From a virus: a stretch of 14,132 nt of DNA. Below, piece by piece: positions 1 to 14,132 of this stretch. Location: IMG/VR virus record IMGVR_UViG_3300045988_079294; one strand, written 5' to 3'. How positions within the stretch are numbered: the first letter of the stretch is position 1; each line of letters opens with the position of its first letter. The notes under the pieces were generated by a model, which saw nothing but the letters and a program-made list of their open reading frames with translations, was not told the origin of the DNA and did no database searches. A program made the position numbers and the translations under genes.

Positions 1-16
1 GCGAAAACCTAATACG

Positions 17-122
17 GTTAGAGACCTCTAACTTCCCACGGGCTGCTTTAACACGCTAAAGCGTTAAAGCGTTTGTTAATTAACTAACAATCTCAGCGTC
101 AGCCCTGTTAAAGCTCTCTAAC
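17..122. repeat. Array of short palindromes and iterated GTTA-core motifs in the terminal non-coding DNA (putative origin/terminal-protein-polymerase recognition region)
   Basis: GTTAGAG 17-23 and CTCTAAC 26-32 are inverted with a 2-bp spacer. GCTTTAAC 45-52 and GTTAAAGC 63-70 are inverted. GTTAATTAAC 75-84 is a perfect 10-bp palindrome. GTTAAAGC recurs at 107-114 and CTCTAAC at 116-122. The whole array is mirrored at 14011-14116. Confidence 0.6.
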
Positions 123-138
123 CGCCCGGCCATGTGAA

Positions 139-164
139 GGGCGCAAGCCTCGGTGCCTGCGCCC
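139..164 (-). terminator. GC-rich hairpin downstream of the left ITR ORF (weak terminator or 3'-end stabiliser)
   Basis: Mirror image of 13969-13994. The stem is about 10 bp (GGGCGCAGGC / GCTTGCGCCC, one G-U). No clean U tract follows it (TTCACAT). Confidence 0.3.
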
Positions 165-173
165 GTGATCGTG

Positions 174-404
174 TTACCAATTGTAAGCCTCCATGTACTC
201 GGTCACGTCCTCTACGTAATCCATGAAGTATTGTGATCCCTTGCCGTAGTCAGGGCGCTCCACGCGGTACAGGCTGTAGATGGGATTGAGGTTGTCTTCG
301 CACTCAAGGCGGATAACGTAGCGATATTTCTTGGTCGTGTAGCTGATCTCTCCGAAGTCGTGCTTGCCGTTTTCAATTATGTTCATAATGAATTTGCTAG
401 TCAT
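174..404 (-). CDS. ITR-encoded 76-aa protein of unknown function, left copy (net acidic, Tyr-rich)
   Basis: Intact ORF, nucleotide-identical to 13729-13959. It has its own consensus promoter (435-463, minus strand) and a GGGAG RBS 9 nt before the ATG. I recognise no motif in it. Confidence 0.7.
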   Translation of the reverse strand: MTSKFIMNIIENGKHDFGEISYTTKKYRYVIRLECEDNLNPIYSLYRVERPDYGKGSQYFMDYVEDVTEYMEAYNW

Positions 405-434
405 GTTTTTTCGCTCCCTTCTCTTGATGGTTAA

Positions 435-463
435 AGTATATCATATATTCCTCAATTTGTCAA
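435..463 (-). promoter_or_regulatory. Leftward sigma70/SigA-type promoter of the left ITR ORF
   Basis: Read on the minus strand: TTGACA (458-463), a 17-nt spacer, then extended -10 TGaTATACT (-10 hexamer 435-440). TTTTCGAAAA (468-477) lies 4 nt upstream of the -35. Confidence 0.75.
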
Positions 464-485
464 TATCTTTTCGAAAATATTTTAC

Positions 486-514
486 TTGACTTTACAGTAA
501 ATATATGATATACT
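486..514 (+). promoter_or_regulatory. Rightward early promoter
   Basis: TTGACT 486-491, a 17-nt spacer, then TGaTATACT with the -10 at 509-514. It shares the 16-nt core ATATATGATATACTTT with both ITR promoters. It is followed by an AAAGGAGG RBS (524-531) and the ATG at 539. Confidence 0.8.
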
Positions 515-538
515 TTTCTCATCAAAGGAGGTGGTATA

Positions 539-742
539 ATGGAAATACAACTTACAGAGCGCGAAGCGCTTGACCTTCAGGGCGTGTGTGCCCTTGCCCG
601 CCTAGGAGGGTTGGCCGTCAAAGACCGCAACCATGGAGACAAAGACTATTGTAGCTACATTGAAAGCCTCATGCAGGTAGCGACTTGCCTAGAGAAGCGA
701 TTAGCGTTAGCAATAGAAACGGAGGCTAAAACGCATGGATGA
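539..742 (+). CDS. Early hypothetical protein, 67 aa
   Basis: First ORF after the early promoter, with a strong AAAGGAGG RBS at good spacing. I recognise no motif. Confidence 0.6.
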   Translation: MEIQLTEREALDLQGVCALARLGGLAVKDRNHGDKDYCSYIESLMQVATCLEKRLALAIETEAKTHG

Positions 743-935
743 TTACTACCGCAAACTTTATGCGCAAGAACTCGCACGTCTGCTCCGCTGCTCCGATACA
801 TGGAACATGCGTCTGGCCGACGAGCTTGTTAATCTTGCAGGATTGAACAGTGAACAAGTCTTTGTAACCGACGAAGAACAACACACCAAGCTAGTATTTC
901 GCGCAGCAGAAAAATTGGGGGTGAAAATCATATGA
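735..935 (+). CDS. Early hypothetical protein, 66 aa
   Basis: GGAGG lies 9 nt upstream. The start overlaps the end of the previous ORF by 8 nt, suggesting translational coupling. Confidence 0.55.
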   Translation: MDDYYRKLYAQELARLLRCSDTWNMRLADELVNLAGLNSEQVFVTDEEQHTKLVFRAAEKLGVKII

Positions 936-1198
936 AAACGTTTATAACGAAAATCGGCAAGGAATGGTACGCGTTTGCCGCCTGTAATCATCTAGGCGAA
1001 CCGTGGGCGTACAATATCGGAATCGAATCCCGCTACGCTCGCTCTGCTGTCAAGGCTACAGCGGCCAACGTGGAACGCATCTGCCGCCCGTCCCGTGACA
1101 AGAACCTAGCAATCAAGAAGGCTCAGCGCGCGGGCAAAATGCACGGCTGGAAGTATTTTGGGGAGGTGGCGTTAGATGGCACGGAAGCCCTTTCTTGA
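932..1198 (+). CDS. Early hypothetical protein, 88 aa (basic)
   Basis: ATGA start/stop overlap with the previous ORF (932-935) and a GGGGGTGA RBS. I recognise no motif. Confidence 0.55.
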   Translation: MKTFITKIGKEWYAFAACNHLGEPWAYNIGIESRYARSAVKATAANVERICRPSRDKNLAIKKAQRAGKMHGWKYFGEVALDGTEALS

Positions 1199-1493
1199 CG
1201 GTGATAACCGTCTGAGTGTGGCTGTCTCCCGCGAGGTTGCCGAGTGGGTTGACGATTATGCCCACGATCTCTATATAAGCCGTTCCGAGCTTCTGCGCGC
1301 TATCATTGACGTAGCGCGCGAAGGCGCGAAGCAAATGCCCGATCTGTACAGCGTTGTAATTATCAATCATCTTGCGGAGGTGTGCCCTTATGGCTGCAAA
1401 AAAGCAACTGCTAACATATCCCGAGGACGTGTATGTACCGCAAGCGATACAGCGCGGACTACTGACCGAGCAGCAGGTAAGAAGCGAGTATAG
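1176..1493 (+). CDS. Ribbon-helix-helix (CopG/Arc/MetJ-type) DNA-binding protein, putative transcriptional regulator
   Basis: Residues ~11-50 (nt 1206-1325), NRLSVAVSREVAEWVDDYAHDLYISRSELLRAIIDVAREG, fit the strand-helix-helix RHH pattern. GGGGAGGTG RBS. It sits directly upstream of the terminal protein candidate and polymerase, like gene 4 in the phi29 4-3-2 order. The C-terminal ~35 aa overlap the next gene and look low-quality. Confidence 0.6.
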   Translation: MARKPFLDGDNRLSVAVSREVAEWVDDYAHDLYISRSELLRAIIDVAREGAKQMPDLYSVVIINHLAEVCPYGCKKATANISRGRVCTASDTARTTDRAAGKKRV

Positions 1494-2028
1494 CCGCTTG
1501 TTAGCCATTGGAATGAAGCGCTATAACCGCCTTGTTGCTGCTGGTTATGCGGAACGCGAATCGGCCAAACTGCTTAAGGCGCAGCTTGTCCGTTTGAAGG
1601 ACATGCCGCGGTACCCGTCAACACCCGCGGGCGAGAACCAGCGTCAGCGCGCGCTAGCCTATCATCTAACAGGCTTGTCCTACGTGCTGACGCTGAAAAC
1701 GGGCACCGTCTCGGGTATTAAGAACTACGAAAAGGCCACGCTTGCTCGCCTGCACAGGTACGGCTATGAATTTGTGACAGAGGCGAATCTCGCCCATTTC
1801 GGCGCGTTTATGGAGAAGCATCGCGCTGAGGTTATGGGCAATGTCCTAGAATCTGACGTTATCGCGCGTGTGTGGAACGAGTCCGAGCGTTTGCAGATTC
1901 CCACGGAACAGGTGGAGAAGGATTTTAGTTTTTTCGTCCAGCATTTGGACGAAATAGAAGACATTCCAGCGGCGCAGGCTGGCGGCGATTCGAAACAACT
2001 GCGCAAATTGCTAGCAAGGAAGAAGTAG
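1390..2028 (+). CDS. Candidate terminal protein (primer protein), 212 aa; assigned by position only
   Basis: Long ORF immediately upstream of the protein-primed polymerase; its stop is 1 nt before the pol ATG. This matches phi29 gene 3-gene 2 synteny. ATG 1390 has GGAGG (1376-1380) at 9 nt. The track's TTG 1372 start would place that RBS inside the ORF. I can verify no sequence motif. Confidence 0.5.
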   Translation: MAAKKQLLTYPEDVYVPQAIQRGLLTEQQVRSEYSRLLAIGMKRYNRLVAAGYAERESAKLLKAQLVRLKDMPRYPSTPAGENQRQRALAYHLTGLSYVLTLKTGTVSGIKNYEKATLARLHRYGYEFVTEANLAHFGAFMEKHRAEVMGNVLESDVIARVWNESERLQIPTEQVEKDFSFFVQHLDEIEDIPAAQAGGDSKQLRKLLARKK

Positions 2029-2029
2029 T

Positions 2030-4027
2030 ATGGATAGCGTTTACACCGTAGAGACATTTCCGTTTGAACTCATAGCGCAGGCGAAACATGTAAAGCGTAA
2101 GCGTGGTAATAACGGCGGTAGAAGTAAACGCGATTTGAAAGACCTTGTATGCGCATTTGATATTGAAACATCTAATCTCCCTGATATTGAGCAAGCATCT
2201 ATGTATATCTGGCAACTACAGATTGACGATCTGGGCACGATCATCGGGCGAACATGGGACGAATACCGGCAACTGCTGGCGCGCGTGTGTGACTTGCTGG
2301 GCGAGAACGAGAGTATTGTTTTTTACGTGCACAATCTCTCGTTTGAATTCCAGTTTTTGCGCGGTATTTATCCCTTTCAGCCGGACGAGGTTTTCTGCAT
2401 GGACAGCCGTAAGATACTGTACTGTTCTATGTTCGACGGGAAAATCCTCTACCGTTGCAGTTACATACATAGTAACATGAGCCTTGCGGACTACACCAAG
2501 AAAATGGGCGTGGAGCATGTCAAGCTATCGGGCGTAGATTTTGATTATCACGAAACGCGCTACCCATGGACTCCACTAACCGATGAGCAGATAGCCTATT
2601 GTATTCATGACGTGCGAGGCCTAGTTGAAGCACTGAAAAAGGAAATGGAAGTTGACGGCGATACACTGATAACCATTCCGCTAACGTCAACCGGTTACGT
2701 GCGTCGGGACGCAAAGCGAGCGATGAAGCAAGTGAGCCACACATTGGTTTCTTCCATTCTTCCGGACGAGAAAACATTTATCTTGCTTCGTGAGGCCTTC
2801 CGTGGTGGGAACACTCACGCAAACCGCTACTATGCTGGGCGCATCATTACTGATGTGGCTAGTGCTGACCGTTCAAGCAGCTACCCCGACACGCAAGTAA
2901 ATTGCAAGTTTCCCATGTCGCGATTTTACTATAAGGGCGAGGCGACCATGAAGGAACTTGAACGCTATATCAATGTGCTGGATAAGGCTGTTGTCATGCG
3001 CGTGGCCTTGTGGGGCGTGCGGCTCCGTGACCCATACTGGGGCGCGCCCTATCTGGCAAGGGACAAGTGTCGGAAGATTATAGAGCCAACCTACGACAAC
3101 GGACGAATATTGGAGTGCAAATACTGTGAAACTACGATTACAGATGTGGACTTGCGAATTCTGCTGGACGAATACGATTTTGATAATTTTAAGGCGTTTG
3201 ACGTAGCATTTGCCCGCTATGGCAAGCTTCCCCGTCCGTTGGTGGAAGAGACAATAAACTACTACCGAAAAAAGACCGAACTAAAGAACGTGGAAGGGCA
3301 GGAAATATATTACATGAAGAGCAAGAACAAATTGAATTCCATCTATGGCATGATGGCACAGAATCCAGCCAAGGAAACCATACTATTTAAGGATAACGAT
3401 TATATTAAAGATGATATACCTCTGGGCGAACGCCTGAAGGAAGCGAATCGCCGAGCATTTCTGGCTTATCAGTGGGGGTGCTGGGTGACCGCATGGGCGC
3501 GCTACCGGCTAGAAGAAGGTATCAAGCTGGCTGGCGACCAGTTTGTCTATTGTGATACGGATTGTGTAAAGTACGTCCGAGAGATTGACTGGCGACCCTA
3601 CAACGTACAGCGTATTAAAGACAGCACGTCGAACGGAGCCTTTGCAGATGATCCGAGCGGAGAACGGCACTATATGGGTGTGTATGAACAGGAAAAGACT
3701 GATCAACGGTTTAAGACGCTGGGCGCGAAAAAATACGCATTTGAGCAGGACGGGAAGACCTATATCACCGTGGCGGGCGTAAACAAACGGTTAGGTGGGA
3801 AAGAACTGGAACGGTTTGGAGGATTAGATGCATTTAACGAAGGGTTTATCTTCCGGGAGGCTGGCGGCATGGAAAGCGTCTACAACGATGAACCGTATGG
3901 ATATGTCAATATTGACGGGCATGAACTCTACGTGGGGACGAATGTCCTTCTCCGTGATAGCACATACTCGCTAGGCATCACGGACGAGTATCGCAGAATC
4001 CTTGAAAAATGTTACTGCATGGGTTGA
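2030..4027 (+). CDS. Family B DNA polymerase, protein-primed (phi29 gp2-like), 665 aa
   Basis: ExoI is FDIET (D44 codon 2159-2161). ExoII-like is HNLSFEF (2330-2350). ExoIII is YCIHD. Motif A is DRSSSYP (from 2867). Motif B is KNKLNSIYG (3323-3349). Motif C is YCDTDC (3548-3565). The KxY motif is GAKKYAF. Confidence 0.93.
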   Translation: MDSVYTVETFPFELIAQAKHVKRKRGNNGGRSKRDLKDLVCAFDIETSNLPDIEQASMYIWQLQIDDLGTIIGRTWDEYRQLLARVCDLLGENESIVFYVHNLSFEFQFLRGIYPFQPDEVFCMDSRKILYCSMFDGKILYRCSYIHSNMSLADYTKKMGVEHVKLSGVDFDYHETRYPWTPLTDEQIAYCIHDVRGLVEALKKEMEVDGDTLITIPLTSTGYVRRDAKRAMKQVSHTLVSSILPDEKTFILLREAFRGGNTHANRYYAGRIITDVASADRSSSYPDTQVNCKFPMSRFYYKGEATMKELERYINVLDKAVVMRVALWGVRLRDPYWGAPYLARDKCRKIIEPTYDNGRILECKYCETTITDVDLRILLDEYDFDNFKAFDVAFARYGKLPRPLVEETINYYRKKTELKNVEGQEIYYMKSKNKLNSIYGMMAQNPAKETILFKDNDYIKDDIPLGERLKEANRRAFLAYQWGCWVTAWARYRLEEGIKLAGDQFVYCDTDCVKYVREIDWRPYNVQRIKDSTSNGAFADDPSGERHYMGVYEQEKTDQRFKTLGAKKYAFEQDGKTYITVAGVNKRLGGKELERFGGLDAFNEGFIFREAGGMESVYNDEPYGYVNIDGHELYVGTNVLLRDSTYSLGITDEYRRILEKCYCMG

Positions 4028-4052
4028 CAAACTGCGCTCCATGGTATATAAT
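4024..4052 (+). promoter_or_regulatory. Consensus sigma70/SigA-type promoter
   Basis: TTGACA 4024-4029, a 17-nt spacer, TATAAT 4047-4052. The polymerase stop codon TGA (4025-4027) lies inside the -35 hexamer. Confidence 0.8.
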
Positions 4053-4058
4053 ATATTC

Positions 4059-4219
4059 GTAACGCAAAGCATCCCAAGCGTGGCATGCAGGTAGGAACAT
4101 TGAGCAGCGCCTACCGACTGCCTGTCTCCCGTGACGTGTGGAAGTTATAGCCTCCTTCCGTGCGTCGCACGACACCCGACTAACCTATCTACCAAATAAG
4201 AGAAACGGAGAAGAAAACT
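4059..4219 (+). other. Structured ~160-nt non-coding leader or candidate small RNA between the promoter and the SSB-like gene
   Basis: No credible + strand ORF. Hairpin 1 spans 4082-4126: 13 pairs with one mismatch, a 3-nt bulge and a 14-nt loop. Hairpin 2 spans 4131-4168: 14 pairs including 4 G-U, with a 10-nt loop. No U tract occurs before the ATG at 4220. Confidence 0.4.
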
Positions 4220-4555
4220 ATGAAAGTTATTGCCAAGTCTAACAACCTCAAGCCGCAGGAACTCTACCAGATGGCCAACGGGAACGACATTAAGCGCATG
4301 CGCGATGTGGCCGGACAGACGCTTGACCTTGCGGGCTGGCTCATCTTTGAGGACGAGAAGCCCGACGGGGAAATCTCCACGATTGTGACCGTACGCACGA
4401 CCGAAGGCGAAATGTACGCCACCAATTCACCGACCTTCCGCCGTAGCTTCGAAAGCATGACTGCCTTCTTTGAATCCGTGGACGCTATCAGAGTTGTGTC
4501 CGCGACCAGCAAGAAGGGAAGGCCGTTCATCACTTGCGACTACGTGGAACGCTAA
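4220..4555 (+). CDS. Putative single-stranded DNA-binding protein (phi29 gp5-like), 111 aa
   Basis: From memory of phi29 p5, TIVTVRTTEGEMYATNSPTF resembles TVTTIFAADGSLYSAISKTV, and IRVVSATSKKGRPF resembles VKVVQGTSSKGNVF. It forms a monocistronic unit between a consensus promoter and a strong terminator, consistent with a highly expressed protein. Confidence 0.5.
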   Translation: MKVIAKSNNLKPQELYQMANGNDIKRMRDVAGQTLDLAGWLIFEDEKPDGEISTIVTVRTTEGEMYATNSPTFRRSFESMTAFFESVDAIRVVSATSKKGRPFITCDYVER

Positions 4556-4562
4556 ACCGGAC

Positions 4563-4590
4563 AGCGCCCTTCATGGGCGCTTTTCTTTTT
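4563..4590 (+). terminator. Rho-independent terminator
   Basis: Perfect 7-bp stem AGCGCCC/GGGCGCT (4563-4569 / 4575-4581) with a 5-nt loop, followed by TTTCTTTTT (4582-4590). It starts 8 nt after the stop codon. Confidence 0.85.
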
Positions 4591-4622
4591 AATGTTCCAC
4601 GTGAAACAATGGGAGGTGCGAA

Positions 4623-5675
4623 ATGAAACTTTACAACGTTGACGGCTGGGCGGACATTCCCGCGATTCTGGAATATTGCGAACGGCAAGGCTGCTTTACG
4701 GTCTTTCTGGTGGGTGGGCGTGGTACAGGCAAGACATACGGCGCGCTATCCTACGTGTTGGATACTCAAACCACGTTTATGTACATGCGGCGGACGCAGG
4801 CTCAGGCTGATATGGTGAGCAGGCCTGAGTTTTCGCCATTTAAGTCTATCAATGACGACCGTGATATCTATATCGGTTCTGTTGCCGTCTCCAAGTATTC
4901 CGCCGGATTTTATCACATGGAGCAGGATAGCGACGATAAATGGAAGCCCGTCGGCGCTCCGCTGGGCTATTCATGCGCCCTGTCTACAATCTCAAATATG
5001 CGCGGCTTTGATGCGTCAAATGTGCGCCTACTTGTATATGACGAGTTTATTCCAGAGCGCCATGAGCGCCCCATAAAGAACGAAGCCGCAGCACTGTTTA
5101 ACGCATACGAGACGATCAGCCGCAACCGTGAAATGAAGGGGCAGAAGCCGTTAATCATGCTATGCTTGTCCAACGCGAACGACCTTGCAAACCCCATTTT
5201 TATGGAGCTCGGCCTTGTGGATAAGGTGGAGCGCATGCGTCAAAAAGGGCGCAGCGAATACATAGACCACAAGCGCGGTTGCGCGGTTATCCTGCTGACG
5301 GATAGCCCTATCAGCCACGCCAAGCGGGAAACGGCGCTTTACCGTCTGACGGCGGGCACCCAATTTGCAGATATGGCGCTGGCTAACGATTTTACTCAGG
5401 ATCACCCGATTAATATTGTGTCGAAGGACTTGAAGCAGTACCGCCCTCTATGCGCTGTTGGGGAGATTACAATATATAAACATAAATCCGCTCAGGAGTA
5501 TTACGTCTCCACTCATCGCAGCGGCTCGCCGCGCTCATATGATGCTACGCCCTACGGGTGCGCGCAATTCCAGAAGGAACAGGCCTGGCTTCGCATTGCC
5601 TATCTTGAAGGAAAGTTATATTTTGAGTCATATTCTTGTCAAAAATACTTGACAAATTACCTTAAGACTGTATAA
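4623..5675 (+). CDS. DNA encapsidation (packaging) ATPase, phi29 gp16-like, 350 aa
   Basis: Walker A is GGRGTGKT (4713-4736). Walker B is LLVYDE (5028-5045). The block VYDEFIPE...NEAAALFNAYETISRNRE...IMLCLSNANDLANPIF parallels phi29 gp16 VFDEFIRE...NEVSALLNLMDTVFRNRE...CICLSNAVSVVNPYF (recalled from memory). GGGAGGTG RBS. Confidence 0.9.
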   Translation: MKLYNVDGWADIPAILEYCERQGCFTVFLVGGRGTGKTYGALSYVLDTQTTFMYMRRTQAQADMVSRPEFSPFKSINDDRDIYIGSVAVSKYSAGFYHMEQDSDDKWKPVGAPLGYSCALSTISNMRGFDASNVRLLVYDEFIPERHERPIKNEAAALFNAYETISRNREMKGQKPLIMLCLSNANDLANPIFMELGLVDKVERMRQKGRSEYIDHKRGCAVILLTDSPISHAKRETALYRLTAGTQFADMALANDFTQDHPINIVSKDLKQYRPLCAVGEITIYKHKSAQEYYVSTHRSGSPRSYDATPYGCAQFQKEQAWLRIAYLEGKLYFESYSCQKYLTNYLKTV

Positions 5676-5676
5676 T
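5649..5676 (+). promoter_or_regulatory. Consensus promoter overlapping the 3' end of the ATPase gene
   Basis: TTGACA 5649-5654, a 16-nt spacer, TATAAT 5671-5676. The ATPase stop TAA (5673-5675) lies inside the -10. The inverted repeat TTGTCAA (5636-5642) N6 TTGACAA (5649-5655) overlaps the -35. Confidence 0.7.
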
Positions 5677-5681
5677 GTAAT

Positions 5682-5758
5682 TGAGCCGTTGTCCACGTGC
5701 AGCCCCGGAAGGGCGGACATGCGCCCGCACAGCGCAAGAAACGGCTCACAATTTTTAT
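5682..5758 (+). terminator. Compound GC-rich hairpin plus T tract (terminator, attenuator or ~75-nt sRNA) directly downstream of the 5649 promoter
   Basis: Outer 9-bp stem TGAGCCGTT (5682-5690) / AACGGCTCA (5740-5748). Inner helices are GTGC (5697-5700) / GCAC (5727-5730) and GGGCG (5711-5715) / CGCCC (5722-5726) with a 6-nt loop. The stem is followed by CAATTTTTAT, with T5 at 5752-5756. Confidence 0.4.
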
Positions 5759-5775
5759 AACGGGAGGGCTGGAAC

Positions 5776-5970
5776 GTGGAAGAGACAATTAATCTGGTTG
5801 TGCAGCTTATTTCGAATGTGGGCTTTCCGATCGCGTGTGTTTGCGCAATGTTCTATTTTTGGAACAAAGAACGGGAAGACCATAAGGAAGAGAATCGCCA
5901 GTGGGTTGAAGCGTTGAACAACAACACACAGGCGATGAATTCTCTGCTGGAATTGGTGAAAAAGGAATGA
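5776..5970 (+). CDS. Small single-TM membrane protein, YvrJ-like; putative holin, 64 aa
   Basis: GTG start, with GGGAGGG RBS (5762-5768) 7 nt upstream. LISNVGFPIACVCAMFYFW forms a hydrophobic helix matching the YvrJ-family signature as I remember it, followed by a charged C-terminal tail. ATGA overlap with the endolysin gene. Confidence 0.6.
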   Translation: MEETINLVVQLISNVGFPIACVCAMFYFWNKEREDHKEENRQWVEALNNNTQAMNSLLELVKKE

Positions 5971-6467
5971 TAGACTGCATCAAGTTTGCCGAGCAGGCTT
6001 ACACATACCGAGACAGTCACATACCATACAAGGAATTGGATTGTCAGGCCTTTGTGGAAAAGGTGCTGCATGACAGCGGAGTGTCCCGCAACTGGCGCGG
6101 CTCTAATCACATGTGGAGGGAAGCGCTGAAGTGGCGCGGAACGTACACGGAAGCCCTTATCAAATATGGCTGTATCCCGCGCGGCGCATTGCTTTTTACC
6201 GTTAAATCAGACGGCGGCGAGAAAAAGCGCGGTTATAACGATAACGACGGTAACGCCTGCCACGTAGGCATTTTTACGGGCGAGGGATACGGCGCAATGC
6301 ACAGCACAACCGGCGGAGTGCAGCAGGCGCGCGGCGACGATAAGCGATGGACACATGTTGGGCTGCTCAAAGACGTGGACTATCACATCGACGGACTGAC
6401 AGAACGGGAAATGCTGGAAAAGATACTAGGCTATGTTGAAATCATAACGGAGGTGCTCAGGAAATGA
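5967..6467 (+). CDS. NlpC/P60-family peptidoglycan endopeptidase (endolysin), 166 aa
   Basis: Catalytic Cys in ELDCQAF (Cys26 codon 6042-6044). The canonical His block is CHVGIFTGEGYGAMHS. No separate cell-wall-binding domain is apparent. Confidence 0.8.
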   Translation: MIDCIKFAEQAYTYRDSHIPYKELDCQAFVEKVLHDSGVSRNWRGSNHMWREALKWRGTYTEALIKYGCIPRGALLFTVKSDGGEKKRGYNDNDGNACHVGIFTGEGYGAMHSTTGGVQQARGDDKRWTHVGLLKDVDYHIDGLTEREMLEKILGYVEIITEVLRK

Positions 6468-6754
6468 CTATCGATGACATCCTCACTCTTGCGCGCGCTG
6501 GCTATACCAGCGAACAGATTAACGCGCTGTACACTGTGCAGGCACAGGCTCCGGTGCAGGCTCCGGTGCAGGCTCCGGTGCAGGCTCCGGTGCAGGCTCC
6601 GACCGCCACGCTTGATGACGTGATGCGCGGCCTTGCAGGCCTTACGACCGCCGTGCAGGCGAACGCGCTTCTGGGCGCACAGCAGCCCGCGCAGCCGACC
6701 GTTAATGACGTGCTGGCGCAGATCATCGCGCCTGACCCGCCCAAGCAGGGCTAA
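6464..6754 (+). CDS. Putative scaffolding protein (by position), 96 aa, with (VQAP)n repeat
   Basis: ATGA overlap with the endolysin stop and a GGAGGTG RBS. It lies directly upstream of the major capsid gene and is about the size of phi29 gp7. The sequence is low-complexity and Ala/Gln/Pro-rich. Confidence 0.4.
   Translation: MTIDDILTLARAGYTSEQINALYTVQAQAPVQAPVQAPVQAPVQAPTATLDDVMRGLAGLTTAVQANALLGAQQPAQPTVNDVLAQIIAPDPPKQG
6536..6601 (+). repeat. In-frame 12-bp tandem repeat GTGCAGGCTCCG x4, preceded by one degenerate 18-bp copy
   Basis: Perfect copies at 6554-6565, 6566-6577, 6578-6589 and 6590-6601. GTGCAGGCACAGGCTCCG lies at 6536-6553. Together they encode VQAQAP(VQAP)4. Confidence 0.95.
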
Positions 6755-12420: not shown

Positions 12421-13638
12421 ATGAGCATTTTTAATAACTTCCCCGCGGTTGGCGCGGGCGGAGACACAAGCGACGCAACCGCAACCGCCGCCGACATTTT
12501 GCAGGGCAAGACTGCTTATGGCGCTGACGGCAAGATTACCGGTACAATCAAGAGCATAGCGGGTGGGCAGGTTGTGCCTAAGGCGGCAGGGCAGATAGCC
12601 GCAGCCGGTAACGTATACACGACCGGCGCACGTATCATTCCCAAAGAGGATAACTTCATTCCCGCCAATATCCGCAAAGATGTATCTATCTGGGGCGTGG
12701 TGGGAACACTCGACCCCGGCAGCACGCCCACACCAGACCCCAATCTGATTCCTGCCAACGTCAAGGCAGGCGTAACCATCAACGGCGTTACGGGCACGTT
12801 CACCAACGACGCGACAATTACGGCAGATTATATACTTGACGGCTTCAGCGGTTACGCACAGGGCGCTAAAATTACGGGCAATATTCCTAGCAAGGACACT
12901 GCCACATACACGCCCGGAACCGCCGACCAGTATATCAACGCTGAGCAGTATCTAAGCGGCTCGCAGAAGATCGCAGGTGATGCTAATCTTGTGGCCGGTA
13001 ACATCGCGCAGGGAAAAAGCATTTTTGGTGTAACCGGTACATACACCAACGATGCAAACGCGACCGCCGAAAGTATGCAGCTGGGCGTGAGCGCCTACGT
13101 CAAGGGCGCGCGCGTGGTTGGTACTGCGCCCATTCAAGCGGCTAAGACGGTAACGCCTACGACCACGGAGCAGACCGCCGTAGCAAGCGGGAGTTTTACC
13201 AGTGGGGCGGTTAAGGTGGCCGGAGATGCGAACCTAGTGGCCGAGAACATCAAGAGCGGCGTGAGCATTTTCGGAGTGGCAGGAGCCGCAGCGGCCGGAC
13301 AAAACATCGAAGGAAAATTTGTAACAGTGGACAGCACAGGCACTGGAAAAACGCTTTTAACTTGCACGTTCACCCCAAATTGGGCATTAATTGGCGGTTA
13401 TTTTAGCTACTCTGGGGGTAGCAGTGGCGCGCAGTATTACGCCAACGGAACTCTATCTAAATCAGGTTCATTCGGCGCACTTAGTTACATGAATATGAGC
13501 ATTTCAGGCTCGAATGTTGTAATTGATAAAGGCGGATTCATCGGTTCTGTTATCGCGGGAGACGGAGAGCCGCCTACATTCGACACGACACCGCTGTCTA
13601 CCAACGACGAGCCGGGAGAGCCTGACGAAACTATCTGA
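12421..13638 (+). CDS. Tail fibre / receptor-binding protein with internal repeat modules, 405 aa
   Basis: AAGGAGG RBS. Motif Y, DAxxTAxxILxGxxAYxxGxKITG, occurs at aa 18-41, 130-153 and 211-234. Motif X, (I/V)xxN(I/V)xxGVxIxGVxGT, occurs at aa 80-96, 110-126, 191-207 and 272-288. A distinct C-terminal domain follows, then an acidic Pro-rich tail. It is the last gene before the right ITR. Confidence 0.65.
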   Translation: MSIFNNFPAVGAGGDTSDATATAADILQGKTAYGADGKITGTIKSIAGGQVVPKAAGQIAAAGNVYTTGARIIPKEDNFIPANIRKDVSIWGVVGTLDPGSTPTPDPNLIPANVKAGVTINGVTGTFTNDATITADYILDGFSGYAQGAKITGNIPSKDTATYTPGTADQYINAEQYLSGSQKIAGDANLVAGNIAQGKSIFGVTGTYTNDANATAESMQLGVSAYVKGARVVGTAPIQAAKTVTPTTTEQTAVASGSFTSGAVKVAGDANLVAENIKSGVSIFGVAGAAAAGQNIEGKFVTVDSTGTGKTLLTCTFTPNWALIGGYFSYSGGSSGAQYYANGTLSKSGSFGALSYMNMSISGSNVVIDKGGFIGSVIAGDGEPPTFDTTPLSTNDEPGEPDETI

Positions 13639-13669
13639 AAAAATTCCTTAATTTATTTTCGCAAACCTC

Positions 13670-13698
13670 TTGACAGGAAATAAAATATATGATATACT
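13670..13698 (+). promoter_or_regulatory. Rightward sigma70/SigA-type promoter of the right ITR ORF
   Basis: TTGACA 13670-13675, a 17-nt spacer, TGaTATACT with the -10 at 13693-13698. TTTTCGCAAA (13656-13665) lies 4 nt upstream of the -35, matching TTTTCGAAAA at the left end. Confidence 0.75.
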
Positions 13699-13728
13699 TT
13701 AACCATCAAGAGAAGGGAGCGAAAAAAC

Positions 13729-13959
13729 ATGACTAGCAAATTCATTATGAACATAATTGAAAACGGCAAGCACGACTTCGGAGAGATCAGCTACACGACC
13801 AAGAAATATCGCTACGTTATCCGCCTTGAGTGCGAAGACAACCTCAATCCCATCTACAGCCTGTACCGCGTGGAGCGCCCTGACTACGGCAAGGGATCAC
13901 AATACTTCATGGATTACGTAGAGGACGTGACCGAGTACATGGAGGCTTACAATTGGTAA
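13729..13959 (+). CDS. ITR-encoded 76-aa protein of unknown function, right copy
   Basis: Identical to 174-404 (-). GGGAG RBS at 13715-13719. Confidence 0.7.
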   Translation: MTSKFIMNIIENGKHDFGEISYTTKKYRYVIRLECEDNLNPIYSLYRVERPDYGKGSQYFMDYVEDVTEYMEAYNW

Positions 13960-13968
13960 CACGATCAC

Positions 13969-13994
13969 GGGCGCAGGCACCGAGGCTTGCGCCC
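13969..13994 (+). terminator. GC-rich hairpin downstream of the right ITR ORF (weak terminator or 3'-end stabiliser)
   Basis: Pairs run from G13969-C13994 to C13978-G13985, giving a 10-bp stem with one G-U. It is followed by TTCACAT rather than a U tract. Confidence 0.3.
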
Positions 13995-14132
13995 TTCACA
14001 TGGCCGGGCGGTTAGAGAGCTTTAACAGGGCTGACGCTGAGATTGTTAGTTAATTAACAAACGCTTTAACGCTTTAGCGTGTTAAAGCAGCCCGTGGGAA
14101 GTTAGAGGTCTCTAACCGTATTAGGTTTTCGC

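Follow-up and report, generated by a model that had tools for sequence, protein, structure and literature searches.

The window, by which we mean the whole 14,132-nt stretch of viral DNA analyzed here, is a complete phi29-like podovirus genome of 14 kb, and it ends on both sides in a perfect inverted terminal repeat (ITR) that contains a whole protein-coding gene, p76. In our judgment, this is probably a linear, protein-primed, phi29-like gut phage whose long ITR is genuine, a core ITR having grown inward over p76 and concerted evolution keeping the two copies identical.

A phi29-like podovirus genome

The window encodes a family-B DNA polymerase (PolB) of the protein-primed type (PF03175, E = 1.8e-11, 44 bits against a cut-off of 25.8), together with a gp16-type packaging ATPase (PF05894), a phi29-type capsid protein (PF25622) and a gp10-type connector (PF05352), all of which scored above their cut-offs. 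A holin, an NlpC/P60-like lysin, a tail lysozyme and a fibre are also encoded; all of these genes lie on the plus strand throughout, and the start codon of the capsid gene (MCP) is TTG. Early genes other than p76 are all located at the left end. The first-pass annotation had proposed a protein-primed phage, and the presence of phi29-type genes (PolB, gp16 ATPase, capsid and connector) agrees with this; on the basis of this gene content, replication of the window genome would be protein-primed. Homology and profile searches of the window ORFs returned no terminal protein. An ORF at 1372/1390-2028 (212-218 aa) lies directly upstream of PolB, in a syntenic position as in phi29, and had 0 profile matches.

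Neither megablast nor tblastn of p76 found a match among deposited phages, none of which is close to the window. The nearest records are unannotated human-faecal contigs, and the next nearest are Amedibacillus phages (25% capsid identity). A genome scan also found one relative, with incomplete ends, within a Clostridiales MAG contig, which is a weak hint as to the host.

The inner edge of the repeat lies in a promoter spacer

The features of the two ends are collected in Table 1. The two ITR copies make up 898 of 14,132 nt (6.35% of the genome), in line with the first-pass description of 449-bp perfect ITRs covering 6.4%. A perfect repeat of this length cannot have arisen by chance in 14 kb, and its lack of mismatches could mean an identity of at least ~98%, since metagenome assemblers can merge near-identical repeats. 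The inverted repeat reaches both ends of the contig, which are assumed to be the physical ends of the molecule. The first bases of the window are GCGAAAACC, and those of L008, a related genome described below, are AAAAACC. No obvious terminal reiteration suited to sliding-back was seen at the window start, and a few terminal bases of the contig may be missing, or its ends may have been trimmed.

Table 1. Positions of terminal features in the window.
Feature	Position	Strand	Description
Left ITR	1-449		100% complementary to 13684-14132
Terminal non-coding region	1-124; mirror 14009-14132		Fast-evolving; two 16-nt palindromes
Hairpin	139-164; mirror 13969-13994	(-); mirror (+)	10 bp, GC-rich, conserved; just after p76 stop codon
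p76, left copy	174-404	(-)	76 codons; outward, towards terminus
RBS of left p76	414-418		GGGAG
Left p76 promoter (L-type)	435-463	(-)	Promoter scan, 11/12 consensus match
Left-specific flank	450-485		Homologous to right flank 13648-13683, diverged; 68% identity
Early-operon promoter	486-514	(+)	Third copy of core ATATATGATATACTTT; back to back with left p76 promoter
Right p76 promoter (R-type)	13670-13698	(+)	Promoter scan, 11/12; -35 outside ITR, -10 inside
Right ITR	13684-14132		100% complementary to 1-449; length 449 nt
p76, right copy	13729-13959	(+)	76 codons; outward

The left p76 promoter consists of a -35 box (TTGACA, 463-458), a 17-nt spacer and a TG-extended -10 box (TATACT, 440-435). 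The extended -10 (435-443) is within the ITR and the -35 (458-463) is beyond it, hence the edge at 449/450 falls within the promoter spacer. The precise inner edge in a promoter spacer reported in the first-pass annotation is therefore confirmed, with -35 and -10 on opposite sides. Its claim that each ITR holds a complete expression unit needs trimming: the gene, its RBS and the -10 are inside, but the -35 is not. Both -35 boxes, as part of the motif TTTTCGnAAA-N4-TTGACA, lie beyond the perfect repeat at each end. Similarity between left and right persists for ~30 nt past the edge, to about position 479, at about 68% identity, so that the ends are, as had been noted, related but diverged, with the motif on both sides and a flank identity of only ~68%. 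The promoter core ATATATGATATACTTT occurs three times in the window, at 436(-), 501(+) and 13685(+). The triple core and the back-to-back promoters suggest co-regulation as well as a substrate for recombination.

p76 is under purifying selection

For p76, dN/dS falls at 0.15-0.35, changes at third codon positions are in roughly threefold excess, and indels stay in frame. Judged by these substitution patterns, p76 is a real gene under purifying selection. Its AF2 model is confident, with a pLDDT of 81.7. Searches of Pfam, PHROGs, PADLOC, NCBIfam and PDB sequences, and of PDB/BFVD with Foldseek, gave no significant match; the best fold match, to PUR-alpha (E = 0.18), is only a hint. Profile searches recovered a family of just 7 clusters at 90% identity; at 50%, it shrinks to 2 representatives among 1.84 billion proteins. 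p76 is an ORFan confined to this phage clade.

ITR copies are identical within genomes and diverged between them

A separate genome, L008, is about 85% identical to the window overall (L003 is the same genome in a trimmed contig). The ITR of L008 is a perfect repeat of 417 nt that includes p76 in each copy and stops at the same promoter position as in the window. Aligned with each other, the ITRs of the two genomes show 58 substitutions and 42 gapped positions (77.9% identity), whereas the two copies in either genome are 100% identical. The flanks inside the edge behave differently. The left flank of the window is 83% identical to the left flank of L008, and the right flank is 89% identical to its right counterpart. 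Across genomes, a left-type and a right-type class of flank can be distinguished, with 74-100% identity within a class and 53-68% between classes. An identity of 77.9% between genomes but 100% within each, a shared boundary and conserved end-specific flanks indicate, at the level of sequence comparison, concerted evolution with a stable boundary. The homogenization postulated in the first-pass annotation is thus borne out by this pair of genomes.

A sister genome carries a single copy of p76

The possibility, raised in the first reading of the window, that relatives might carry the gene at one end only is realized in L002, which has p76 at the left end only and an ITR of ~150 nt that ends at the hairpin. 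The second copy of p76 is therefore dispensable. L002 was the sole return of a terminal-motif scan of viral contigs. The left ends of L002, L053, L055, L061 and L063 have p76 with an R-type flank and an extra outward ORF upstream. This extra ORF, absent from the window, is situated between p76 and the early promoter (~380-510, minus strand, in L002; also in L053, L055, L061 and L063) and has a promoter of its own; its product of ~43 aa ends in ...EAWEAV or similar.

L063 is the most divergent member of the p76 family, and because the single-copy layout is also found there, we infer that this layout is ancestral. The difference in ITR length most likely reflects inward expansion of the repeat to the long form and not shrinkage to the short one; this polarity is tentative, with the long ITR seen in two distinct genomes and the single-copy right end verified in one.

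It had also been claimed that the promoter, gene and terminus together form the selected unit. This does not follow, because a gene within a homogenized repeat stays in two copies without selection for two; moreover, in the L002-type genome one copy and a ~150-nt ITR suffice. We nevertheless weighed selection on the two-copy state itself, either for gene dosage or for a strong promoter at both ends, so that p76 would be expressed first regardless of which end enters. Entry of phi29 DNA into the cell starts with the right end. Several findings would fit such selection: the extended -10 and the 11/12 consensus match of each p76 promoter, the purifying selection acting on p76, and the persistence of the layout in two genomes ~15% apart. 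However, L002 manages with a single copy and none at the right end, homogenization alone would keep both copies, and p76 has no match in Pfam, PHROG, PADLOC, NCBIfam, PDB or BFVD. We consider selection for two copies unlikely, and prefer homogenization of a repeat that happens to include the gene.

The terminal region and its hairpin

The two 16-nt palindromes of the terminal region are GTTAGAGACCTCTAAC at 17-32 and GTTAAAGCTCTCTAAC at 107-122, and there is a further AT-rich palindrome around 75-92. Identity between the window and L008 over the terminal region is 66.9% overall; both 16-nt palindromes are kept in the window, L008 and L002, with indels in the sequence between them. Compared with shuffled sequences, the fold of the region is far more stable (z = -5.6). 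From their position, bases 1-124 are the probable replication origin.

In L002, the outer palindrome (13630-13645) has an inverted centre relative to window 17-32, GTTAGAG-GT-CTCTAAC versus GTTAGAG-AC-CTCTAAC, which could be the product of two substitutions or of a hairpin-mediated flip. Long-range pairing between the two palindromes was considered and rejected: the altered centre in L002 weakens this pairing, with no compensation. The ORF at 1176-1493 was likewise discarded as a ribbon-helix-helix reader of the terminal palindromes, the sole sign being a VapB match at E = 0.085.

Across 7 distinct sequences, 100% of cells in the hairpin at 139-164 are paired; the loop varies, a G.U pair is invariant, and there is a single compensatory change, A:U to U:A. 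L002 has the same hairpin directly 3' of its fibre gene stop codon. A terminator scanner found no intrinsic terminator at 139-164, where the conserved stem has no U-tract and is followed by the tail UUCACAUG; the hairpin may nonetheless stop or stabilize RNA.

In phi29, the packaging RNA (pRNA) is an outward unit at the left end. An outward unit that matters mainly as RNA, for example as a pRNA, with the p76 ORF being incidental, would likewise account for the conserved hairpin and its strand-specific G.U pair, and for the three-way-junction-like fold of the terminal 185 nt of the outward transcript (z = -5.6), in a genome that does encode a gp16-type ATPase. This is very unlikely in view of the clear coding signatures in p76. 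Furthermore, Rfam gave no pRNA match at E <= 10, and the fold is not conserved, with one inner hairpin lost in L008 and L002; asccphi28 has also been reported to be without a pRNA (PMC7823558). The gap at 4028-4219, considered as an internal pRNA site, shows no marked structure (z = -1.5). Weak Rfam matches to miRNA/snoRNA at 4542-4602 are spurious and reflect merely a hairpin. This hairpin has 28-nt arms, is followed by a T-run and lies 3' of an SSB-like gene; it is probably the terminator of the early operon.

The second copy is not readily explained by assembly

A contig from an independent assembly at k = 31 (Logan contig L062, SRR1930144) is 100% identical to window positions 420-6380, and begins at 420, that is, exactly 30 nt (k-1) inside the ITR edge. 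A break k-1 inside the edge is expected of a true repeat boundary in a de Bruijn graph, which argues against an artefact. It is scarcely credible that the second copy is an assembly artefact and that the actual genome combines a short ITR with a single p76 at one of its ends: the data are metagenomic, the sequence is known from assemblies and repeat collapse is possible, but the ITR joins two different flanks, which needs reads across both junctions, the different genome L008 has the same layout in separate assemblies, the end of L062 fits a real boundary at k = 31, and assemblers reported a short ITR as short where it is present (L002).

A proposed route to a gene-bearing repeat

Our preferred reading, a core ITR that has grown inward over p76, could be pictured as follows. 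The outer ~150 nt, with the terminal region, its two palindromes and the hairpin, would be the core ITR, most likely acting both as the replication origin and as a stop or 3' stabilizer for outward transcripts. In the window lineage, the repeat would have extended inward to 449 nt, incorporating p76, the outermost gene, along with its RBS and -10, such that p76 came to be present twice. During protein-primed strand-displacement replication, the terminal sequence would be copied repeatedly from one end to the other, either by annealing of the ITRs in displaced single strands (panhandle) followed by repair, or by strand exchange or template switching between the ends of replicating molecules. 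Crossover would be limited to where the ends match, hence copying would halt at the promoter core ATATATGATATACTTT, and the flanks beyond it would be old and end-specific. The panhandle is the standard model for restoring homology between ends, although direct evidence for it is lacking in any system (PMC11886824).

A broader version of this proposal holds that ITR growth guided by a repeated promoter core is a general route by which protein-primed phages recruit end-proximal genes into a self-correcting two-copy compartment, with p76 as an immediate-early factor (end-binding or anti-defence) that gains from expression at whichever end enters first. We offer it as a speculation that we ourselves think improbable.

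Comparison with known terminal repeats

The first-pass annotation overstated the case in describing the ITRs of protein-primed phages as usually short, given repeats of 577 bp in asccphi28, 350 bp in Mycoplasma P1 and 236 bp in Cp-1. All three are isolated phages, and their deposited records, which we checked, contain perfect ITRs with annotated promoters inside. asccphi28 (EU438902) is, like the window, phi29-like with a perfect ITR, and its repeat is the longer of the two. Each asccphi28 copy is annotated with an outward promoter-to-terminator unit and an inward promoter. Unlike the window, asccphi28 has neither an annotated nor a convincing protein gene in its ITR; its late genes are on the opposite strand, and it has no sequence similarity to the window. 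Cp-1 (Z47794) shares with the window a perfect ITR with an outward promoter inside, and an ITR edge located between the -35 (222-227) and the -10 (245-250) of a promoter. The split promoter of Cp-1, however, points inward, and its ITR is shorter and has no gene. The perfect repeat of Mycoplasma P1 (AF246223) also has a promoter and ends at the start of the first gene, but, in contrast to the window, it comprises promoter and leader only and no whole gene.

Other virus groups show comparable dynamics. In the haloviruses PH1 and SH1, the ITRs are 78.5% alike and the inner edge is shifted (PMC3622292). This drift, together with end restoration in adenovirus and PRD1, resembles the situation in the window in that ends are alike, relatives diverge and edges shift (PMC11886824, PMC3622292). 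By contrast with the window, the ITRs of adenovirus, PRD1 and PH1/SH1, which belong to other virus groups, are without a gene.

The length, perfection, promoter content and edge position of the window ITR are thus already known in this group, and only the complete, selected protein gene within the repeat is new, being absent from the asccphi28, P1 and Cp-1 records. Nothing is overturned by this, as long, perfect, promoter-bearing ITRs had been documented in the group before. Genes doubled by repeat expansion, as in the window, are familiar from the diploid ITR genes of poxviruses and from the long terminal repeats of linear plasmids. Poxvirus ends, however, are hairpins and not protein-primed, and their repeats are on the kilobase scale with no homology to the window.

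The sister genomes, with a ~150-nt core in one and, in the other, a 449-nt gene-bearing ITR whose edge is fixed at a shared promoter core, offer a clean case from nature of how ITRs change in a protein-primed phage. The ~150-nt and 449-nt states delimit the minimal end element and make a tractable case for how ends stay identical. They are also relevant to designing orthogonal protein-primed replicons that have genes inside their ends.

Further observations on the window and its relatives

L006 was tried as a further example, within the clade, of a gene-bearing long ITR, but its 286-nt ITR is without a gene. In the ITR of a distant relative, L005 (1-107), the edge is in a promoter spacer. That of another, L014 (1-121), includes a promoter and RBS and runs as far as the start codons at both ends. 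At the left end of L001 (1-~800, minus strand), p76 and the terminus are replaced by a fragment encoding the acyltransferase catalytic domain of a 2-oxoacid dehydrogenase (PF00198, E = 1.9e-52); this left end reflects either a chimera in the contig or the capture of part of a host gene.

Within the window, a 12-nt tandem repeat, CAGGCTCCGGTG, is present in 4-5 copies at 6545-6604 and encodes QAPV repeats in a 96-aa ORF (6464-6754). We also noted that the C-terminal part of the fibre gene (13277-13638) is non-homologous to that of L001 and L002, and looks like a swapped receptor-binding module.
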